A stretch of 64,000 bases of DNA from an uncultured Clostridia bacterium. GTDB taxonomy: Bacteria > Bacillota > Clostridia > TANB77 > CAG-508. Of this stretch, positions 8,454 to 64,000 are shown in pieces (positions within the stretch are counted from its first letter, which is position 1; every line of letters starts with the position of its first letter). Location: contig CAKPOA010000006.1 in NCBI GenBank assembly GCA_934169575.1, positions 457 through 64,456 of the forward strand. The letters run 5' to 3'. The notes under the pieces are model-generated. The model had not been told where the DNA came from. It was given only the letters and a program-made list of their open reading frames with translations, and did not search any database. Both the position numbers and the translations under genes were made by a program.

Positions 8454-8589
8454 ATTCTTCTCTCCTTTCCAAATAATTAAATTACGTAGATTTAATTTTA
8501 TCACATTTTTTGTTAAATGTCCAATTTTTCAGAATGCTTTTTAATTATGCTAAGTATAGGTACAAGTCAGCCATTTTTAATTTATAACC

Positions 8590-8740
8590 CAAATATGTGT
8601 ATAGAATTATTTTTTAATACTGCGCAAGCGACCAAACGAACGTAAGTGAGTGCGATTGGAGCAATTTTCATTATACTAATTTTTTAATATGGAAATTGCG
8701 ACTGCAAAATATGTAAAAATAATTCTATACACATATTTTG
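8590..8740 (+). repeat. Copy 1 of a dispersed structured repeat (GC-rich core inside long AT-rich inverted arms)
   Basis: The core CTGCGCAAGCGACCAAACGA...GTGCGATTGGAGCAATTTTCAT...ATGGAAATTGCGACTGCAA is shared with three other loci. The 24-bp arms AAATATGTGTATAGAATTATTTTT and their complement are perfect. Confidence 0.85.
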
Positions 8741-8767
8741 TTCTAAATCACTTTAATAACTAAATAT

Positions 8768-8797
8768 ACTTGAACTTCTACATATAGAAGTTCAAGT
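8768..8797 (-). terminator. Terminator hairpin after pilC
   Basis: ACTTGAACTTCTA-CATA-TAGAAGTTCAAGT, a perfect 13-bp stem 10 nt downstream of the pilC stop. The T-run is weak. Confidence 0.5.
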
Positions 8798-8806
8798 AAT
8801 AAGTTA

Positions 8807-14821: not shown

Positions 14822-15316
14822 TTATTCCCAAGAAATAACTCCATTAGATATAGTTCCTGTTACAGTTGTTCCATCTGAATATTTTAAAACAATTGAACCA
14901 CCAACAGCTTCTGTATCAGAAGTTGCACTTGTTATTGCAGTTCCTGTAGCATTTTTTACAACTAAACCATCTGCTGTATTTCCTAAAATAGTTTCAATTT
15001 CTGATTTTGCACCTAATACTGATTTACGTATTTGTGTGTCTATTTTTGCATTTATTGTAGCAGCACCAGCTCCATTTTCAACATATACATTTTGATATGT
15101 GTCATGAACAGCTTCCGTAGCTAATAATGCGCATTTATCTTTTGCAGCACCTAATTGGTTTGCAGCAGCACCTGCTCCTGCTTTACTTATAATTCCATCT
15201 TGTCCAGATATCATAGCAATTGAGATACCTGCTAATATTATTAATACAATAATTGTGATAACAAGTGCTATTAATGTGATACCACCATTACCTTTTAATT
15301 TTAAACTTTTTTCCAT
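14822..15316 (-). CDS. Type IV pilin paralog 1
   Basis: MEKSLKLKGNGG/ITLIALVITIIVLIILAGISIA class III-like signal. GAGGTGG RBS before ATG 15316. Shares 56 consecutive identical residues with the next gene. Confidence 0.7.
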   Translation of the reverse strand: MEKSLKLKGNGGITLIALVITIIVLIILAGISIAMISGQDGIISKAGAGAAANQLGAAKDKCALLATEAVHDTYQNVYVENGAGAATINAKIDTQIRKSVLGAKSEIETILGNTADGLVVKNATGTAITSATSDTEAVGGSIVLKYSDGTTVTGTISNGVISWE

Positions 15317-15349
15317 TATTCTTTCCACCTCATTATTTTTTAGAAGTTT

Positions 15350-15901
15350 TTATTTTGTTGTGTCTCCATCTTTCCAAGTAATAACTCCATTTGCGATTTC
15401 ACCTGTTACAGTTGTTCCATCTGAATATTTTAAAACAATTTTATCAGCTTTCTTTAGAGCAGCTGTATCTGTTGTTTTAGTTGGAGCATCTGCTGGAACA
15501 GTAGCGCTTGCAACTGCAGCTCCAGTAGCATCATAAACTGTAAGTCCATCAGTTGTGTTGCCCAAAATTTTTTCAATTTCACTTTTTGCTCCAAAAGTTT
15601 TTGCTTCTAATGTAGCATTTATTGTATCAGTTATTTTAGCAGCTACCAATTTATGTTTTACATATACTTGATCATATACATCATTAACTGATTCAGCTGC
15701 TAATAATGTGCATTTATCTTTTGCAGCACCTAATTGGTTTGCAGCAGCACCTGCTCCGGCTTTACTTATGATTCCATCTTGTCCAGATATCATAGCAATT
15801 GAGATACCAGCTAATATTATTAATACGATAATTGTGATAACAAGTGCTATTAATGTGATACCACCATTACCTTTTAATGCTATACTTTTGTTTTCTTTCA
15901 T
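15350..15901 (-). CDS. Type IV pilin paralog 2
   Basis: MKENKSIALKGNGG/ITLIALVITIIVL... GGGGGG RBS before ATG 15901. The N-terminus and the C-terminal VLKYSDGTTVTG.I.NGVI.W are conserved with paralog 1, and the middle is divergent. Confidence 0.7.
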   Translation of the reverse strand: MKENKSIALKGNGGITLIALVITIIVLIILAGISIAMISGQDGIISKAGAGAAANQLGAAKDKCTLLAAESVNDVYDQVYVKHKLVAAKITDTINATLEAKTFGAKSEIEKILGNTTDGLTVYDATGAAVASATVPADAPTKTTDTAALKKADKIVLKYSDGTTVTGEIANGVITWKDGDTTK

Positions 15902-15979
15902 TTTTTTCCCCCCTTTTCTTATTAAATATTTATCATGAGTATATTTATTTTTCAATAAATATAACTTTAATAACTGGGT

Positions 15980-16513: not shown

Positions 16514-17233
16514 TTATTGCGCAATATTGTTATTTTTTGTTGCATTAGTTGTATTTGTATTTCCTGTTGCATTAGTTGTATTTGTATTTCCTGTTGTATT
16601 AGTTGTGTTTGTTGTATTTGAATTATCATCTGCTGTTTGTGATTGAGTTGTTGTTTTAGTTGTAATTTCAATATCTATTTTTATTTCTGTACAACTAAAT
16701 GTTGCTTTTACACCATTTGTATCTGATATCATTTTAAATTTTTCAACTTTAAATCCTAATTTTGAATCATTTTCAATATCGTATATAAATTGAGTAACAT
16801 CTGGATAATCACCTGTTACAGTAAAATTCAAATCATATCTTCCTGAAATTTGACTTGCTGTTACTTCAATTTTTATATCTACATCATTATCTTTCGCATA
16901 ATTTCCAATTTTGGTCCACAAAAATTCTATTTCATATTGTTCAGTTTGCATATGTCTATCTTTATCGCTTAATAACAAAGCTTTATTCTCATATTCTGAT
17001 TTAGTTTTTTGCATTGTTTCTGCTGAGCTTTCTAAAGTTTTTACTGCACTTGGATATTTTGTACCTACAAGATCTGAGAGTTGGGCATTTGACGAATCTA
17101 TTTCTTCATCTTTATTTATTATTTGTTTAACTCCCCAAATATCAATGTTTTTCATTTCAATTCCATTAGAAATTGCAATTCCAGTAAGTACTGTTACTAA
17201 AATTAAAATCAATATAAATAATACTTTTCTCAT
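16514..17233 (-). CDS. PilO-like pilus assembly protein
   Basis: N-terminal TM, a coiled-coil segment, position immediately after pilM/N, and a 4-nt overlap with it. Thr/Asn-rich repeat tail. Confidence 0.5.
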   Translation of the reverse strand: MRKVLFILILILVTVLTGIAISNGIEMKNIDIWGVKQIINKDEEIDSSNAQLSDLVGTKYPSAVKTLESSAETMQKTKSEYENKALLLSDKDRHMQTEQYEIEFLWTKIGNYAKDNDVDIKIEVTASQISGRYDLNFTVTGDYPDVTQFIYDIENDSKLGFKVEKFKMISDTNGVKATFSCTEIKIDIEITTKTTTQSQTADDNSNTTNTTNTTGNTNTTNATGNTNTTNATKNNNIAQ

Positions 17234-18849
17234 GGCAACTCTCCTTCTATTGTAACATTTATTGAATTATCAGTTTTATTTCCACTTGAAGATACAACAT
17301 TATTTAATATACCTTTTGTTTTTAATGTAGCTATAAAATATCCTAATTGTTCATAATCTTCAGATGAAGCTTGAATTCTTACAGATTTTCCTGTAGTATT
17401 TTCTATTGAACTTAATTCAACTTTTTCTGGTATTACAAACATAATTTGATTTAATAAATTTGGTATTAAATTTCTACTTGCTGCAATATCACTTGTTCTT
17501 TTATCTATCTCATCTAAATCACTAATTAATGAGCTGTATTTCTTTGTTTTTGTATCAATTGACGTATTGTCTGAATTCACTGCTGATATTTGACTATTTT
17601 GTGTAGATATTAATCCATCAATTTCGTCTTTTTTATCAATCATACTCTTAGATAATAATATTGAAAATACTGTATAAATTATTAAAATCAAAACTACTGT
17701 AGCAATACCTCTAACAAGCCATCTTTCACTTTTTGATAAATCACCCTTTAAATCAAAGTCTAGATTAAACTTCTTATCTTTTTTATCATTGTTTGCAGTA
17801 TTTTTTGAACCTATATCTGATTTTAATAATCTTTTAAATTTTTCCATTGAATTGGTTTTTTGGAAATTGAATTCTTGTATTCCTTCTCCAATTCCTGTCA
17901 TTGCTAAACCAATTGCTGAATTTACCTCTATATATTCTTTAACATTTTTTGCACTACCTTTAACCATTTTTGGTTTTAATATTTCACATTCTATATCTGG
18001 TAAAAACTCTTGAAAATATAAATCTATATTATTTATTATAGCTAATGTACCAGTTAAATATACCTTTTTTATATCTCTCCATGATTCACTTACCAATTCT
18101 TGTACTCTTTGTGCTACTTTGTAAATTGTTGGAATTATATATTGCAAAAATTCCTCATTTTCGCCTCGTGTATCCATTTCTGCTGTATAAATTGTAGTAT
18201 TTTTGCAAATTTCATAAGCTTTTGCATATGAATTTTCAACAACATTTATACTATCTAAAACTTCTTTACTTCCAACATCCATTGTTTCAACTTCATAAAT
18301 ATTTTGATTTATGATTGTTGTTATCATTGTGCTTTCTTCCATATTTACAATTAATTGGTTTTCTTTTGTATTTACTTTTCCAACATTTGTTATTGCTATT
18401 GGAGTAGGCACAATTTTAGTAAGTCTTACTTTTTCTAATGGTTGTGTTTGTCTGTTTAATTCTATTTTATTGATATAAACATCCATTGCCCTTACTTTTT
18501 CATCTTGCCTTACATCTTCCATTAGAGCAAATCTTGTTTCAAAAGCATTTTTATTATATTTATTTTCTTCGCAATAAGTTTCAAATTCTGTAGCAATTGT
18601 GCTTTCAATATCTTTTTTCTTCAATAATGCAAAAACATCAAAATACAAATATTTTTCATTTGATATATTTACACTTATTGGAGTGTTAAAACTAAATGTT
18701 TCTTCTATTATTTTACTAATTTCTGCACTTAAATTAGTATCAAAAAATCTAACGCCAAAAGATTCAATTTTTACATCTTCATGTTCTTTTGAAACTTTTG
18801 CATATTTAATTATGTTGGTTTCAATATATATACCTAAACATTTTTGCAT
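17230..18849 (-). CDS. pilM: PilM-PilN fusion (actin-like ATPase domain + TM + PilN-like domain)
   Basis: The N-terminal CLGIYIETNIIKYAKV resembles the PilM/FtsA-like fold. A central TM (WLVRGIATVVLILIIYTVFSILL) is followed by a PilN-like C-domain. First gene of the pilus operon. Confidence 0.7.
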   Translation of the reverse strand: MQKCLGIYIETNIIKYAKVSKEHEDVKIESFGVRFFDTNLSAEISKIIEETFSFNTPISVNISNEKYLYFDVFALLKKKDIESTIATEFETYCEENKYNKNAFETRFALMEDVRQDEKVRAMDVYINKIELNRQTQPLEKVRLTKIVPTPIAITNVGKVNTKENQLIVNMEESTMITTIINQNIYEVETMDVGSKEVLDSINVVENSYAKAYEICKNTTIYTAEMDTRGENEEFLQYIIPTIYKVAQRVQELVSESWRDIKKVYLTGTLAIINNIDLYFQEFLPDIECEILKPKMVKGSAKNVKEYIEVNSAIGLAMTGIGEGIQEFNFQKTNSMEKFKRLLKSDIGSKNTANNDKKDKKFNLDFDLKGDLSKSERWLVRGIATVVLILIIYTVFSILLSKSMIDKKDEIDGLISTQNSQISAVNSDNTSIDTKTKKYSSLISDLDEIDKRTSDIAASRNLIPNLLNQIMFVIPEKVELSSIENTTGKSVRIQASSEDYEQLGYFIATLKTKGILNNVVSSSGNKTDNSINVTIEGELP

Positions 18850-18965
18850 CTTTTTTTCTCCTTAGTCATTTTTCATATTTCTATTTTATTTTATATTTTT
18901 TCTTTAAAAAAATCAATAGTTTTAACACAAATGTAATATAATTGTAATATTGTTGTAATATTTTT

Positions 18966-25298: not shown

Positions 25299-25329
25299 TA
25301 TCAAAATTTAAATAGCCTTAAAATATTAA

Positions 25330-25467
25330 TATATATTGTATTATTTTATGAATACCGCGTAAGCGACCAAACGAGCATAGCGAGTGCGATTGGAGCAATT
25401 TTCATTATATTGATTTTTGAAAAGAAAATTGCGACTGCAAGGTATGAAAAAAATAATACAATATATA
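25330..25467 (+). repeat. Copy 2 of the dispersed structured repeat, inside the spoVAC-spoVAD spacer
   Basis: Core CGCGTAAGCGACCAAACGAGCATAGCGAGTGCGATTGGAGCAATTTTC...GAAAATTGCGACTGCAAGGTAT. Arms TATATATTGTATTATTTT and their complement. Confidence 0.85.
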
Positions 25468-25507
25468 AATTAAATTTATAATCAATTTATATGAAAGGAA
25501 TTGAAAA

Positions 25508-33508: not shown

Positions 33509-33585
33509 TGGTGCTCCCTCAAGGATTTGAACCTTGGACCCACCGGTTATGAGCCGGTTGCTCTGACCAACTGAGCTAAGGGAGC
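33509..33585 (-). tRNA. tRNA with CAT anticodon (Met, or lysidine-modified Ile2)
   Basis: Cloverleaf folds by hand: acceptor GCTCCCT/AGGGAGC, D arm GCTC/GAGC, anticodon stem ACCGG/CCGGT with loop CTCATAA, T arm CAAGG-TTCAAAT-CCTTG, encoded CCA. G1-C72 is paired, so it is not an initiator. The D and anticodon arms resemble Bacillus tRNA-Ile2. Confidence 0.9.
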
Positions 33586-33716: not shown

Positions 33717-33791
<75 letters not shown>

Positions 33792-39634: not shown

Positions 39635-39805
39635 GCCTTAATCTCCTTTGCTTTATTTATTTATTTATATTATATTATTTACTAATTTACATTATTATTA
39701 CAATTTTATTACAATTATATTACATTTATTTTAATTTATCAATACATTTTGCTAAATTTATGAAATTATTTTTTTGTTTTTTACCTCATTTTATTAAATT
39801 TGCCA

Positions 39806-39876: not shown

Positions 39877-40713
39877 ATGATACGCATAGAAAGTGGAGAC
39901 ATAATACGGAAGGTCCAAGATCACTGGACAACCAAACAGATCTTAGATTATTTTCAAATGGACGAAAGTACATTTAAAAATAATCTTCAAAAATCTCTTA
40001 ATCCTAAAGCATATAATGGATTAATGAGAGAACTTAAAAGAAATGATAAACTTGGAGGTAAATCAAAAAAATATACTCAAAAGAAGTGTATTGAAATACC
40101 TATTGCAAATGTTAATAATGCTATTCTGGTAAAAGACTCAAAAGAAGAGGCTAAAGAAATAGAAAAAAATTTTTCAACAATTCAGGTTATTAAAAATAAA
40201 ATTAGTACACTGAATTCTCTGATTAGTCAGCTTTCTAAAATTTCTTCAGAATATGAAGAAAGTATAACTGATTTAAAATCTTCTATTGAAGACAATAAGA
40301 AGTCTATTGATAAGTTGGAAAAAGAAAATGCAGAATTTACTGCAAAACTTGATGAAATTTATCAGGAGCAAAAAAAGCATGATCTGCTATTGACAGAAAA
40401 ACAGGAAGAATTAAAAAAACTTGAGCAAGAGATTGAACAGCTAAAAACAATCAATATTTTTTTCCATGAAAATGGAGAAATTGAGATTGAAGACCCAGAA
40501 AAGGCTGAAAAAAAGCCTATCACTGTTTCTACAAATAGTGATACATTAAGTTTGTTACTAAGATATTCAGAACTTGAAAATTTCACCTTAAAAACTTTGA
40601 AATCTTTAGCCAACCTTATTGGCTATGTAAAAAAGCTGAAAATTCTTAACGAAAAGTTTGAGGTAATTTTTGAAGATGAAATTCTTGAAAAGATTTTCCA
40701 TGAGTTGTCATAA
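39877..40713 (+). CDS. Coiled-coil hypothetical protein, compositionally atypical
   Basis: GGAGG RBS. ~60-aa N-domain (WTTKQILDYFQMDESTFKNNLQK), then a long heptad-like K/E-rich region. Visibly more G/C and more CAG/CTG/AAG codons than its neighbours. Confidence 0.6.
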   Translation: MIRIESGDIIRKVQDHWTTKQILDYFQMDESTFKNNLQKSLNPKAYNGLMRELKRNDKLGGKSKKYTQKKCIEIPIANVNNAILVKDSKEEAKEIEKNFSTIQVIKNKISTLNSLISQLSKISSEYEESITDLKSSIEDNKKSIDKLEKENAEFTAKLDEIYQEQKKHDLLLTEKQEELKKLEQEIEQLKTINIFFHENGEIEIEDPEKAEKKPITVSTNSDTLSLLLRYSELENFTLKTLKSLANLIGYVKKLKILNEKFEVIFEDEILEKIFHELS

Positions 40714-46594: not shown

Positions 46595-46744
46595 TTAGGT
46601 ATTTTCATTGAATCATTTTTTTAATACTGCGCAAGCGACCAAACGAGCACAGCGAGTGCGATTGGAGCAATTTTCATTTATTTAATCTTAGATATGGAAA
46701 TTGCAACTGCAAAGTATTAAAAATAATTCAATGAAAATACCTAA
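46595..46744 (+). repeat. Copy 3 of the dispersed structured repeat
   Basis: Best-preserved copy. The arms TTAGGTATTTTCATTGAATCATTTTT...AATACT pair with AGTATTAAAAATAATTCAATGAAAATACCTAA. The core is identical in layout to the other copies. Confidence 0.9.
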
Positions 46745-46756
46745 GCTTAATAAATA

Positions 46757-47848
46757 TTAAACATTAAATTTAAATAATACAATATCTCCATCTTTCATTA
46801 TATATTCTTTACCTTCTGAGCGTACAAGACCTTTTTCTTTTGCAGCATTTAAAGAACCTTCTCTTATTAAATCATCATAAGACACAACTTCTGCTTTAAT
46901 AAAACCTCTTTCAATATCAGAGTGAATTTTTCCAGCCGCCTCAGGAGCTTTTGTTCCTTTTTTTATTGTCCAAGCTCTAACCTCTGGTTCACCAGCAGTC
47001 AAGAAAGACATTAAACCTAATAAATCATAACTCTTTTTAATTAATTTATCTAATCCAGATTCCTCAAGTCCAATTGCCTCTAACATTTCTTTTTTATCCT
47101 CATCATCTAATGTTGATATTTCTTCTTCAATTTTAACACAAAGTGGAACAATTTCCGAATTCTCTTTTTCTGCATATTGTTTAACTTTTAAAACATTTTC
47201 ATCATTTTCCCAATTTCCAATTTGTTCTTCAGAAATATTTGCAACATAAATTATAGGTTTTATAGTTAAAAGAAAAATATCTTTTAAAATTTCTCTTTCA
47301 TCATCACTATAATCTAAACTTCTTGCAGAAACACCATTTTCTAAATTCTGTTTAATTTTCTTTAATAAATCTATTTCTGCCTGATATTTTTTATCTGATT
47401 TTAACATTTTTACAGCTTTTTCTAACCTTTTATCAACAGTTTCAATATCTGCAAAAATCAATTCTAGATTAATTGTTTCAATATCTCTTATTGGATCAAT
47501 TTTTCCATCAACATGTGTTACATTAGAATTTTCAAAACATCTTACAACTTCACATATTGCATCTGTTTCTCTAATATGTGACAAAAATTTATTTCCTAAA
47601 CCTTCTCCTTTGCTTGCACCCCTTACTAATCCTGCTATATCTACAAATTCTACTATTGCATGAGTTACTTTTTGTGGATTATACATTTTAGCTAAATTAT
47701 CTAATCTCTCATCAGGTACAGCTACAATTCCAACATTTGGTTCTATAGTGCAAAAAGGATAATTTGCACATTCTGCACCTGCTTTTGTTATACTATTAAA
47801 TAATGTACTTTTTCCTACATTTGGTAATCCAACTATTCCAATTTTCAT
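46757..47848 (-). CDS. ychF: Ribosome-binding ATPase YchF
   Basis: GLPNVGKST G1 motif, DIAGLV, and the C-terminal TGS-like IERGFIKAEV. Confidence 0.95.
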   Translation of the reverse strand: MKIGIVGLPNVGKSTLFNSITKAGAECANYPFCTIEPNVGIVAVPDERLDNLAKMYNPQKVTHAIVEFVDIAGLVRGASKGEGLGNKFLSHIRETDAICEVVRCFENSNVTHVDGKIDPIRDIETINLELIFADIETVDKRLEKAVKMLKSDKKYQAEIDLLKKIKQNLENGVSARSLDYSDDEREILKDIFLLTIKPIIYVANISEEQIGNWENDENVLKVKQYAEKENSEIVPLCVKIEEEISTLDDEDKKEMLEAIGLEESGLDKLIKKSYDLLGLMSFLTAGEPEVRAWTIKKGTKAPEAAGKIHSDIERGFIKAEVVSYDDLIREGSLNAAKEKGLVRSEGKEYIMKDGDIVLFKFNV

Positions 47849-51082: not shown

Positions 51083-51180
51083 CTAATTTTATTGTAATAT
51101 TTATGACCATTTTTGTCAATATAAATTTTAAAAGAGACAATTATTATGGTTGCAAATCAGCCTAAAATTAATTCAAACTT

Positions 51181-51328
51181 GATATTTATATTGTATTATT
51201 TTTTTCATACTTTGCAGTCGCAATTTCCATATTTAAAAATTAATTAAATGAAAATTGCTCCAATCGCACTCGCTTTGCTCGTTTGATCGCTTACGCAGTA
51301 TTTAAAAAATAATACAATATAAATATTC
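51181..51328 (-). repeat. Copy 4 of the dispersed structured repeat (inverted orientation)
   Basis: The reverse complement reads AATACTGCGTAAGCGATCAAACGAGCAAAGCGAGTGCGATTGGAGCAATTTTCAT...ATGGAAATTGCGACTGCAAAGTAT. The 23-bp arms ATATTTATATTGTATTATTTTTT and their complement are perfect. Confidence 0.85.
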
Positions 51329-51379
51329 AAATCACAGATTTTAATTTGCTTGCTTATACATAATATAGTCTCTTAAATT

Positions 51380-56488: not shown

Positions 56489-56843
56489 TGGTGGAGGTGA
56501 GGAGAGTTGAACTCCTGTCCACTATATAATCCATATAAATTTCTCCGAGTGCAGTTTGTTTTTTATATTCATTTTTTTAACAAGAACAAACACCTTTTAA
56601 AAAAATATATCTTCTAAATACCCTTTACTTCCAAAGAAAAAAAGTAAATTTGTTTTCCCACTAGATGACACCTAATATAAATATGTGGGAATATTTATAC
56701 TGGTGAGCTACTAAGCAGCAGCTAATGCATAATCTTCATTATTTGCATTTATTATTAAATTCGCTTTTTTATAGTGGCCAAAGCGACCATCCACTACTCG
56801 CTAATCATATTTCATATATAATGTCGAAACCAATTACACCCCC
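56489..56843 (-). ncRNA. ssrA: tmRNA (SsrA)
   Basis: 5' GGGGGTGTAATTGGTTTCGAC pairs with the 3' ...CACCTCCACCA tRNA-like end (with a G3.U pair) and the T-arm GGAGTTCAACTCTCC. Tag reading frame GCAAATAATGAAGATTATGCATTAGCTGCTGCTTAG = ANNEDYALAAA*. TTGATA-17-TATAAT promoter upstream. Confidence 0.95.
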
Positions 56844-63856: not shown

Positions 63857-64000
63857 TTTTTCCCTCCTCTTACATTCTTCATTTCTCATAACTTTTACCC
63901 TTATATCATACAATATTATTTGAAAAATAGCAAGGTTTATTTTTAATTTTTTGATTTTTTTTTTAATACTGGTCAGCCTTAAAGTAATTTAAACCTAAAT

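Follow-up and report, generated by a model that had tools for sequence, protein, structure and literature searches.

Within a 64,000-nucleotide stretch of DNA from an uncultured Clostridia bacterium of the CAG-508 group (assembly GCA_934169575.1, contig CAKPOA010000006.1; the whole stretch is called the window below), the intergenic segment at positions 46595 to 46744 raises the question of what it is: a mobile repeat, a structured nucleic acid module, or both at once. A preliminary description, made from the letters of the window, had presented it as one of four dispersed copies of an element with a G+C-rich core closed by a long stem. Our analysis indicates that the segment is a copy of a new palindromic, non-coding and non-autonomous insertion family of about 195–235 bp, similar to MITEs (miniature inverted-repeat transposable elements) and carrying a strand-specific structured module. 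We give this reading a probability of roughly 55%. The earlier interpretation was essentially right, save for one misdrawn hairpin and an underestimated size. In the following, the copies of the window are named c1 to c5, the segment in question being c3, and contigs designated by L numbers are strain contigs, metagenome-assembled genomes (MAGs) of relatives or metagenome contigs.

Copies, extent and insertion of the element

The repeat is real and non-random. The four dispersed copies were recovered by two routes: the 24-mer GAGTGCGATTGGAGCAATTTTCAT matches exactly at 8648 (+), 25382 (+), 46654 (+) and 51248 (−), with none expected from 100 shuffled windows, and R1, a covariance model built from 17 copies with its structure set by hand, returned exactly these four as full copies, at 122–128 bits. 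With its filters off, R1 found nothing more in the window. An alignment of the four regions spans about 150 nt at a mean column identity of 82% and, as had been stated, all of them lie between called open reading frames (ORFs). Since the window has only about 26% G+C (its GC skew is negative throughout), the G+C-rich core stands out.

The element proved to be larger than first delimited, and a fifth copy, c5, starting at about 63950, is cut by the end of the window. The last 50 bases of the window are the outer arm of c5, whose core lies just past 64000 on the minus strand. This copy is complete in the strain contig L063, where it occupies 235 bp (1755–1990), including a consensus core at 1815–1926 that scores 128.9 bits and an intact terminal repeat at either end. 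The element's arms, AT-rich and some 60 nt in length, end in a 14-nt terminal inverted repeat, GTTACTRGTCAGCC. This repeat was found as GTTACTRGTCAGCC and GGCTGACYAGTAAC at both ends of the L016 copy and of c5, and at one end in L005, L018, L013 and c1; c4 has it in degenerate form. The terminal repeats are thus common to members of the family, as in MITEs, and they adjoin a core at every locus examined, never standing alone. The long closing stem of the preliminary description is present as inner inverted arms in all four full copies, complementary over 26–36 nt, and the fold of the c3 element has an energy of −54.5 kcal/mol (z = −10.8). Across the family the arms are near-perfect only in the inner 20–35 bp. 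Within a copy, complementarity over roughly the inner 20 nt is 93%, whereas copies compared with one another are about 76% identical; farther out the values are near the AT-rich baseline.

We also considered the arms as an independent repeat family and rejected this, because arm sequences occur only beside cores, with the single exception of a tandem partial arm. The latter, an extra partial left arm (GTTACTGACAAGCC...AAATATGTGTATAAAATCATTTTT) at about 3650–3712 of L016, stands directly upstream of a complete copy and is the only coreless arm found.

An exact 19-mer scan of species-representative genomes detected true copies only in low-G+C MAGs of uncultured Clostridia (Lapin-025 bin43 and Lapin-015 bin83 from rabbit, UMGS1229 from human, and UBA7001), and a metagenome scan added a dozen further copies. 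In related MAGs and metagenome contigs of rabbit and human gut, R1 recovered 24 distinct copies with scores of 61–130 bits. The family has so far been seen only in a clade of uncultured, spore-forming gut Clostridia of about 26% G+C. As many copies sit at contig ends, the repeats break metagenome assemblies of this clade, and R1 can be used for annotating them.

The preliminary description could not place the element in any Rfam family, and the searches agree with this. At the gathering threshold of Rfam 15 the element was unmatched, the window yielding only one tmRNA and two tRNAs, and up to an E-value of 10 it received only generic long-hairpin matches (plant microRNA precursors and others), far below threshold. 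A plasmid origin was discarded, since blastn against PLSDB gave one spurious 50-bit match, and so was a phage or viral origin, with no match by blastn against INPHARED or by a 19-mer scan of IMG/VR. A full-text literature search with 15-mers of the core found no paper.

That the element is an insertion, sitting in intergenic spacers, was shown at the spacer between spoVAC and spoVAD, the one orthologous site compared. This spacer measures 209 bp with c2 and 15–16 bp in L045, L046 and L047, sister-species relatives whose SpoVAD is 85–87% identical and which have the upstream order of pilus/secretion genes in common; strains of the same species all carry the 209-bp spacer. No trace of arms or core was found in the empty sites. 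Therefore, the whole unit of arms plus core was inserted, and the insertion of a core into pre-existing palindromes is ruled out. The suggestion of a REP- or MITE-like mobile element (REP, repetitive extragenic palindrome) is borne out by this pair of filled and empty sites, which gives the presence/absence polymorphism of a MITE. The size of 195–235 bp and the copy number (five in or at the edge of a 64-kb window, 24 in the family) agree with it. At c3 and c4 the empty-site comparison met trxB surroundings that are not syntenic in the nearest relatives.

The element is also non-coding, its sole ORF-like frame not being conserved. It could be argued that the core encodes a small hydrophobic antisense peptide, such as MKIAPIALAVLVWSLAQY in c3, as c2 and c3 have an antisense frame, started by ATG, across their most conserved segment. 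But this frame is broken by 1–2-nt changes in hairpin-loop length in c1, L017, L028 and L015, a common C/U polymorphism converts it to a TGA stop in c4, L001, L016 and others, no ribosome-binding site lies upstream, and the substitutions are compensatory instead of synonymous. The frame not being conserved, the peptide is effectively refuted and keeps almost no probability.

No transposase, recombinase or reverse transcriptase was identified among the window ORFs scanned. The genes that flank the copies are all housekeeping (spoVA, ychF, a peptidyl-prolyl isomerase, glucosaminidases, T2SS-F, the alpha subunit of DNA polymerase III, IF-3 and seryl-tRNA synthetase), as are the other window ORFs scanned. 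An autonomous version was looked for in these genes and in the ORF between two element copies of L005, and was rejected, the ORF lacking a Pfam match. This ORF, of 611 amino acids at L005 524–2359, begins with what we take, from reading its translation, to be a prepilin-type N-terminus (KGITLIALIITIIVLIILAG). An intrinsic terminator was likewise rejected: no terminator-like site lies within any copy, and the one near c1 (8767–8798) belongs to the upstream gene.

Structure of the core and the strand that is read

The core is asymmetric, G+C-rich and 95–105 nt long, and its sense strand forms a junction of four helices, P1, H1, P3 and P4. P1 has 5–7 bp and covaries, as AAUACU/AGUAUU, AUACC/GGUAU, AUAUU/AAUAU, GUGAC/GUCAC and UAAUGC/GCAUUA. 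The GNRA-capped mini-hairpin of the preliminary description, here H1, holds in the 24 copies with both stem pairs invariant; its loop is GYAA (GC-GYAA-GC) in most copies and GCA (GC-GCA-GC) in the L003/L006 subfamily. P4, the hairpin GCAAUUUUCAU/AUGGAAAUUGC of 11 bp, was also retained with its U.G pair in the 24 copies; its loop is free in length and sequence, and most of its stem positions never vary. The joiner has the consensus GAC-(UG/ACA/AG)-CAA.

P3 had to be partly redrawn. The outer helix that had been proposed, CCAA with UUGG, stood in the 24 copies as YYAA/UUGG. The inner hairpin GCAC-AGCGA-GUGC did not, as its GCAC/GUGC pairing is available in c2 to c4 and is paired in only 35–67% of the sequences, with no compensatory change. 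On pair counts it was replaced by AC-[G.A/A.G]-NN-loop-N'N'-[G.A/A.G]-GU. In this arrangement YYAA/UUGG encloses AC, the tandem G.A/A.G pairs, two covarying tip pairs (G-C/C-G, A-U/C-G, A-U/U-A, G-C/U-A and G-C/A-U), a 3–6-nt loop, GAGU and a GCGA bulge. A degenerate copy at L012 2264–2357 is missing all of the P3 hairpin as well as its right arm, through a deletion between direct repeats (AGCGA...AGCGA).

Covariation backs this fold on one strand. In a MAFFT alignment of 17 copies, 96.8% of the helix cells are paired and seven pairs have changed on both sides; in the model-fitted alignment of 24 copies, which is biased toward the structure of R1 itself, the values are 97.2% and ten pairs. Slid controls gave 29–38% for both. 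RNAalifold independently produced P1, H1, the tandem-G.A hairpin and P4. Across different MAG species, 46 columns of the core are invariant, and the loops and outer arms have diverged to baseline. Small palindromic repeats abound in bacteria, and most of their families conserve the ends; here the centre is conserved and the ends less so.

The strand-specific character attributed to the element in the preliminary description was supported by folding, as the sense core has a mean energy of −23.0 kcal/mol, against −17.1 for the antisense, and is lower in 17 of 17 copies. The wobble bias that went with it is real and more modest than supposed: helix cells contain 31 G.U against 7 A.C, and 17 of the G.U are one inherited pair of P4. 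The clearest signal came from P3, where C-to-U changes that give U.G occurred in eight copies from several subfamilies, the partner UUGG remaining unchanged (0 G-to-A). Although the copies are not independent, these signals all point the same way: it is one strand that is read. Mismatches of the arms comprise 20 G.T against 16 A.C, with no strand bias; the arms, unlike the core, thus behave as DNA-level inverted repeats. Two further observations concern exchanges within and between elements. At L005 216–327, on the minus strand, P4 alone is reverse-complemented (GCAATTTCCAT...ATGAAAATTGC), its conserved U.G having become C.A and the rest of the core being unflipped, which is a nested inversion within the element. 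With their flanks included, the copies at L017 887–999 and L013 744–855 each combine a left and a right arm of different subtypes (AAATATGTGTATA... against ...TATATTGTATTATTTT); distinct copies seem to have recombined through the core they share.

A rival explanation is that the family is neutral selfish DNA, in which recent amplification of a few master copies and gene conversion, between copies and between arms, would have generated structure and conservation around a functionless fold. The chimeric arms do show recombination between copies, the arms have no strand bias, and with most P4 stem positions invariant much of the pairing there is plain sequence identity. Nevertheless, we find this explanation highly improbable. 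It does not account for 46 core columns staying invariant across MAG species while loops and outer arms are at baseline, nor for a hairpin tip, next to the tandem G.A, that pairs in at least five compensated combinations. The tandem G.A itself is invariant and non-Watson-Crick, and correction by template switching would have erased it. In addition, substitution is asymmetric, C-to-U being tolerated and G-to-A not.

Inversion of the core and how the element may work

The core of c2 was found exactly reverse-complemented between unchanged flanks in L039, L042 and the truncated L043, from three samples, and in forward orientation in L035–L038, L040–L041 and L056–L059. The exchange falls inside the perfect inner repeat of 16–18 bp. 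L039 was assembled with a k of 141, which exceeds this repeat, and an assembly artefact is therefore unlikely. At c2, then, both orientations exist of a segment bounded by inverted repeats, as in invertons, and the core can invert in place by exchange within its perfect inner arms. The preliminary description had noted that orientation is independent of the flanking genes, and among 23 copies about 10 have the orientation of these genes and about 12 the opposite one. At least part of this independence arises because the core inverts between its arms.

Several points weigh against the reading given at the outset. The copies are kin, so the shuffle and Wilcoxon statistics overstate their independence. 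No direct repeat of a target-site duplication is visible at c2, L016 or c5, both ends being intact in only two copies, and no autonomous parent element was found; as a consequence, MITE is here a description and not a demonstrated mechanism. Since H1 is invariant, covariation does not prove this helix, which is plausible, and a two-pair extension of P1 that competes with it can form in 12–15 of 17 copies; we considered this extension in place of H1 and judged it possible but weaker. Regarding inversion, L039 and L042 are nearest relatives, with four single-nucleotide polymorphisms in 4.5 kb, so the inverted c2 allele belongs to one lineage and a single event suffices. In a thin sampling of strain contigs, c1 (8 contigs), c3 (4) and c4 (1) all had the orientation of the window, and inversion may be rare rather than a switch. 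About half of the copies are antisense to the flanking genes, and a role as RNA would be open to only half of the copies, barring a promoter within the element itself. Finally, triloops on 2-bp stems are common in the family, and GCGNAGC and GCGNNAGC are also, as reported by Hirao and colleagues, very stable DNA mini-hairpins; the two observations suit single-stranded DNA no less than RNA.

An alternative is that the core is a cis-acting recognition module, in single-stranded DNA or a cruciform, for the mobility or recombination of the element itself, with no RNA and no host benefit. The arms would snap into a long hairpin and present the junction to a structure-specific enzyme, either HUH-type or a tyrosine recombinase. 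We regard this as rather unlikely. It fits the random orientation relative to transcription, the DNA-level flips of both core and P4, and the frequency of triloops with very short stems. It also fits the two forms of H1, GC-GYAA-GC and GC-GCA-GC, and a tip that in one case reads GCGAAAGC, all of them reportedly mini-hairpins of extraordinary stability as DNA. The lack of a visible target-site duplication at L016 and c5 is typical of single-strand or site-specific mechanisms, and the c3 fold is also strongly non-random with DNA parameters (z = −8.3). However, the core lies about 60 bp from the ends of the element, where cleavage must happen, and in c2 and at the right end of c1 the terminal repeats have decayed and the core is still consensus, which points to selection after insertion and not for transposition. 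The copies do not favour the lagging-strand template (in the window, three are on the plus strand and two on the minus, under a uniformly negative GC skew), the window contains no HUH or recombinase gene, and conserved U.G pairs are more typical of RNA. With these pairs and the GNRA and tandem G.A motifs in its favour, we put RNA slightly ahead of single-stranded DNA as the folded strand.

The inversion at c2 also invites comparison with invertons such as fimS, the Bacteroides capsule promoters, and cwpV and flgB of Clostridioides difficile, in which a segment of 100–200 bp lies between inverted repeats and occurs either way round within a population. Homologous families of them are documented in gut Clostridia (PMC11892184). 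If the elements were invertons, the core would hold the −35 box (TTGCGA) of an outward-facing promoter and the inner arm its −10 box (AATAAT, TAATAT or TAAAAT), and an invertase would switch the neighbouring gene on or off by flipping them. c1, c2 and c4 indeed carry TTGCGA-N16-17-AATAAT at the core's 3' end, similar boxes at a spacing of 16–18 nt can be seen by eye in most other copies, and a gene start lies on one side of every window copy. Promoter-like matches are nevertheless at shuffle frequency (2–6 found against 2.4–3.2 expected), c3 fails the promoter scan (TTGCAA with a spacer of 15), and the copy at L003 7171–7275 lies between convergent genes. A promoter would also leave unexplained the covarying hairpins, the tandem G.A and about 80 other conserved positions of the core. 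Invertons are not insertions with terminal repeats, which the whole unit is here; their payload is a promoter or coding segment, in place of a covarying folded core, and they depend on an invertase, for which no gene occurs among the window ORFs nearby. With one inversion event at c2, confined to one lineage, only the bare inversion is held in common, and we consider an inverton very unlikely.

Returning to a MITE-like insertion with a module read on one strand, its course could be as follows. An enzyme supplied in trans would carry out transposition, probably by recognising the terminal repeats; mobilisation in trans is suggested by the element's lack of coding capacity and by the search for a partner gene, which found none. 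Once the element is inserted, its outer arms would decay, and the inner stem and core would be kept, so that what is retained is probably read in single-stranded form. Selection after insertion is suggested by copies whose ends have decayed but whose core is still consensus and inner stem still perfect. According to the preferred reading, the unit would act as RNA within read-through transcripts. Whatever the orientation, the arms would form an RNase III-type substrate, a duplex about 30 bp long, and the four-way junction would form only from a transcribed sense strand, so that inversion would toggle the junction. The complementarity of the arms would be kept at the DNA level, by arm-to-arm recombination or template switching, and not by selection on RNA, since the arms lack a wobble bias, both kinds of flip were seen and some arms are chimeric.

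What is conserved is the central junction of about 100 nt on one strand, with its GNRA/GNA and tandem G.A motifs, which is intact even where the transposon ends have decayed. If its fold is RNA, it would be a new class of structured RNA, spread by a mobile element in uncultured human and rabbit gut Clostridia and lying inside operons such as spoVA; if it is single-stranded DNA, it would point to an unrecognised structure-dependent mobilisation system. A more specific and distinctly unlikely proposal is that the core is a functional RNA module on a flippable cassette, for instance a self-cleaving or protein-recruiting four-way junction, or else that it partners, as RNA or single-stranded DNA, a putative structure-guided recombinase by which the element is moved. 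Were the flippable RNA module true, exchange between arms would set the active sense fold or the inert complement in operon transcripts, and the family would be a dispersed set of phase-variable post-transcriptional switches.

Comparison with known repeats and other features of the window

The closest published analogue is bcr1 of the Bacillus cereus group, a mobile and transcribed intergenic repeat of about 155 bp that forms a cruciform-like RNA structure upheld by compensatory changes and whose distribution differs between related strains (PMC3184786). The element and the group A bcr repeats, bcr1 included, are alike as intergenic Firmicute repeats of about 150 bp with strain-variable presence and a compensated structure (PMC3184786). 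They have no sequence similarity. bcr1 has 5-bp terminal direct repeats and two independent stem-loops; in the element, arms about 60 nt long enclose a core that inverts in place and forms a four-helix junction containing GNRA and tandem G.A motifs, and a target duplication is not visible. Its centre is much better conserved than its ends. Transcription is documented for bcr1, and the element is known from DNA alone.

With classical MITEs (Correia/CREE of Neisseria, RUP of Streptococcus pneumoniae and ERIC) the element has in common a short, non-coding, multi-copy and intergenic nature, terminal inverted repeats, presence or absence between relatives, and the possibility of long hairpins in transcripts (PMC3184786). 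The termini of those MITEs are their best conserved part and are flanked by a TA or similar duplication; in the element the centre is far better conserved than the arms, of which only the inner part is paired, no duplication was seen, and no parent insertion sequence (IS) was found.

The REP, REPIN and BIME families, linked to RAYT transposases, are also extragenic palindromes, and REPINs, as inverted doublets, fold into long hairpins. In BIME-1/RIB units, inverted REPs surround a conserved asymmetric central motif. REPs are described as G+C-rich sequences of 20–40 nt with a GTAG or CGTC tag (PMC3733652). The arms of the element are instead AT-rich, of about 60 nt, and end in GTTACTRGTCAGCC around a structured centre of 100 nt, and it was not assigned to REPs or REPINs. 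Nor was it assigned to the palindromic elements derived from IS200/IS605: these have no terminal inverted repeats, differ in their left and right subterminal hairpins and insert strand-specifically 3' of a short target, whereas the arms of the element are long, inverted and symmetric around one central core.

In purely structural terms, the parvovirus inverted terminal repeat is a long stem capped by small asymmetric hairpins that exists in two inverted configurations (flip and flop), and the attC site of integrons is a folded single strand, strand-specific and recognised by structure rather than by sequence. The analogy is structural only, the contexts being wholly different (a linear viral end; a cassette array beside an integrase) and with no sequence relation. 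In addition, attC has conserved ends and a variable centre, the reverse of the element.

Table 1. Positions in the window of the element copies, of the parts of c3 and of the RNA genes.
Feature	Coordinates	Strand	Remarks
c3, inner inverted-repeat arms and core	46595–46744	+	decayed outer arm may extend left to about 46557
c3, right side			adjoins the ychF stop codon at 46757
c3 core, R1 match	46616–46727	+	124.8 bits
c3 P1, 5' strand AAUACU	46623–46628	+	pairs with AGUAUU at 46713–46718
c3 H1 mini-hairpin GC-GCAA-GC	46629–46636	+	
c3 P3 region	46639–46665	+	CCAA 46639–46642 pairs with UUGG 46662–46665
c3 inside P3, AC-GA-GC-ACA-GC-GA-GU	46643–46657		tandem G.A pairs, covarying tip
c3 GCGA bulge in P3	46658–46661		
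c3 P4 hairpin GCAAUUUUCAU / AUGGAAAUUGC	46667–46704	+	11 bp, one U.G, 16-nt loop
c3 joiner (G/A)AC-UG-CAA, P4 to P1	46705–46712	+	single-stranded; GACACACAA or GACAGCAA in other subfamilies
c1	8559–8769	+	left terminal repeat GGTACAAGTCAGCC at 8559–8572; core 8609–8722; right outer arm decayed
c2	25299–25492	+	194-bp insertion filling the spoVAC-spoVAD spacer; core 25344–25455
c4	51149–51356	−	core 51197–51309; degenerate terminal repeat GGCTGATTTGCAAC at 51149–51162
c5	63950–64000	−	outer arm only in the window; terminal repeat ACTGGTCAGCC at 63968–63978
c1 inner inverted arms	8591–8626 / 8703–8738		
c2 inner inverted arms	25330–25356 / 25441–25467		
c3 inner inverted arms	46595–46620 / 46719–46744		
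c4 inner inverted arms	51182–51211 / 51297–51326		
tmRNA gene	56489–56843	−	Rfam, 162 bits
tRNA gene	33512–33585	−	Rfam
tRNA gene	33717–33787	+	Rfam

Some features outside the element were also observed. Two strain contigs, L056 and L057, match the window at 99.6% as far as position 33787, where the second tRNA gene of Table 1 ends, and diverge after it (from about 18300 in both contigs). Past the tRNA they encode a resolvase, a Mob_Pre relaxase and a Bro-N protein, and the divergence looks like a strain-specific mobilisable element integrated at the 3' end of the tRNA gene. The intergenic positions 18922–18960 and 39696–39734 have in common a 39-nt motif, with an 87% match and in inverted orientation, which contains three TATTACA repeats at a spacing of 10–11 nt. 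At both sites it lies upstream of a gene start in the same relative orientation (17230–18849, minus; 39877–40713, plus), and it may be a shared operator.

In some strain contigs, ftsZ or a gene for an 836-amino-acid protein similar to adenosine deaminase was called in two or three pieces (L035 4437–5558, L068 5225–7248 and L072 1999–4515); these are frameshifts, pseudogenes or assembly errors. Finally, two adjacent ORFs of the cluster for type IV pilus or type II secretion, at 14822–15328 and 15350–15955 of the window, are 87% identical over 270 nt and are tandem paralogues.

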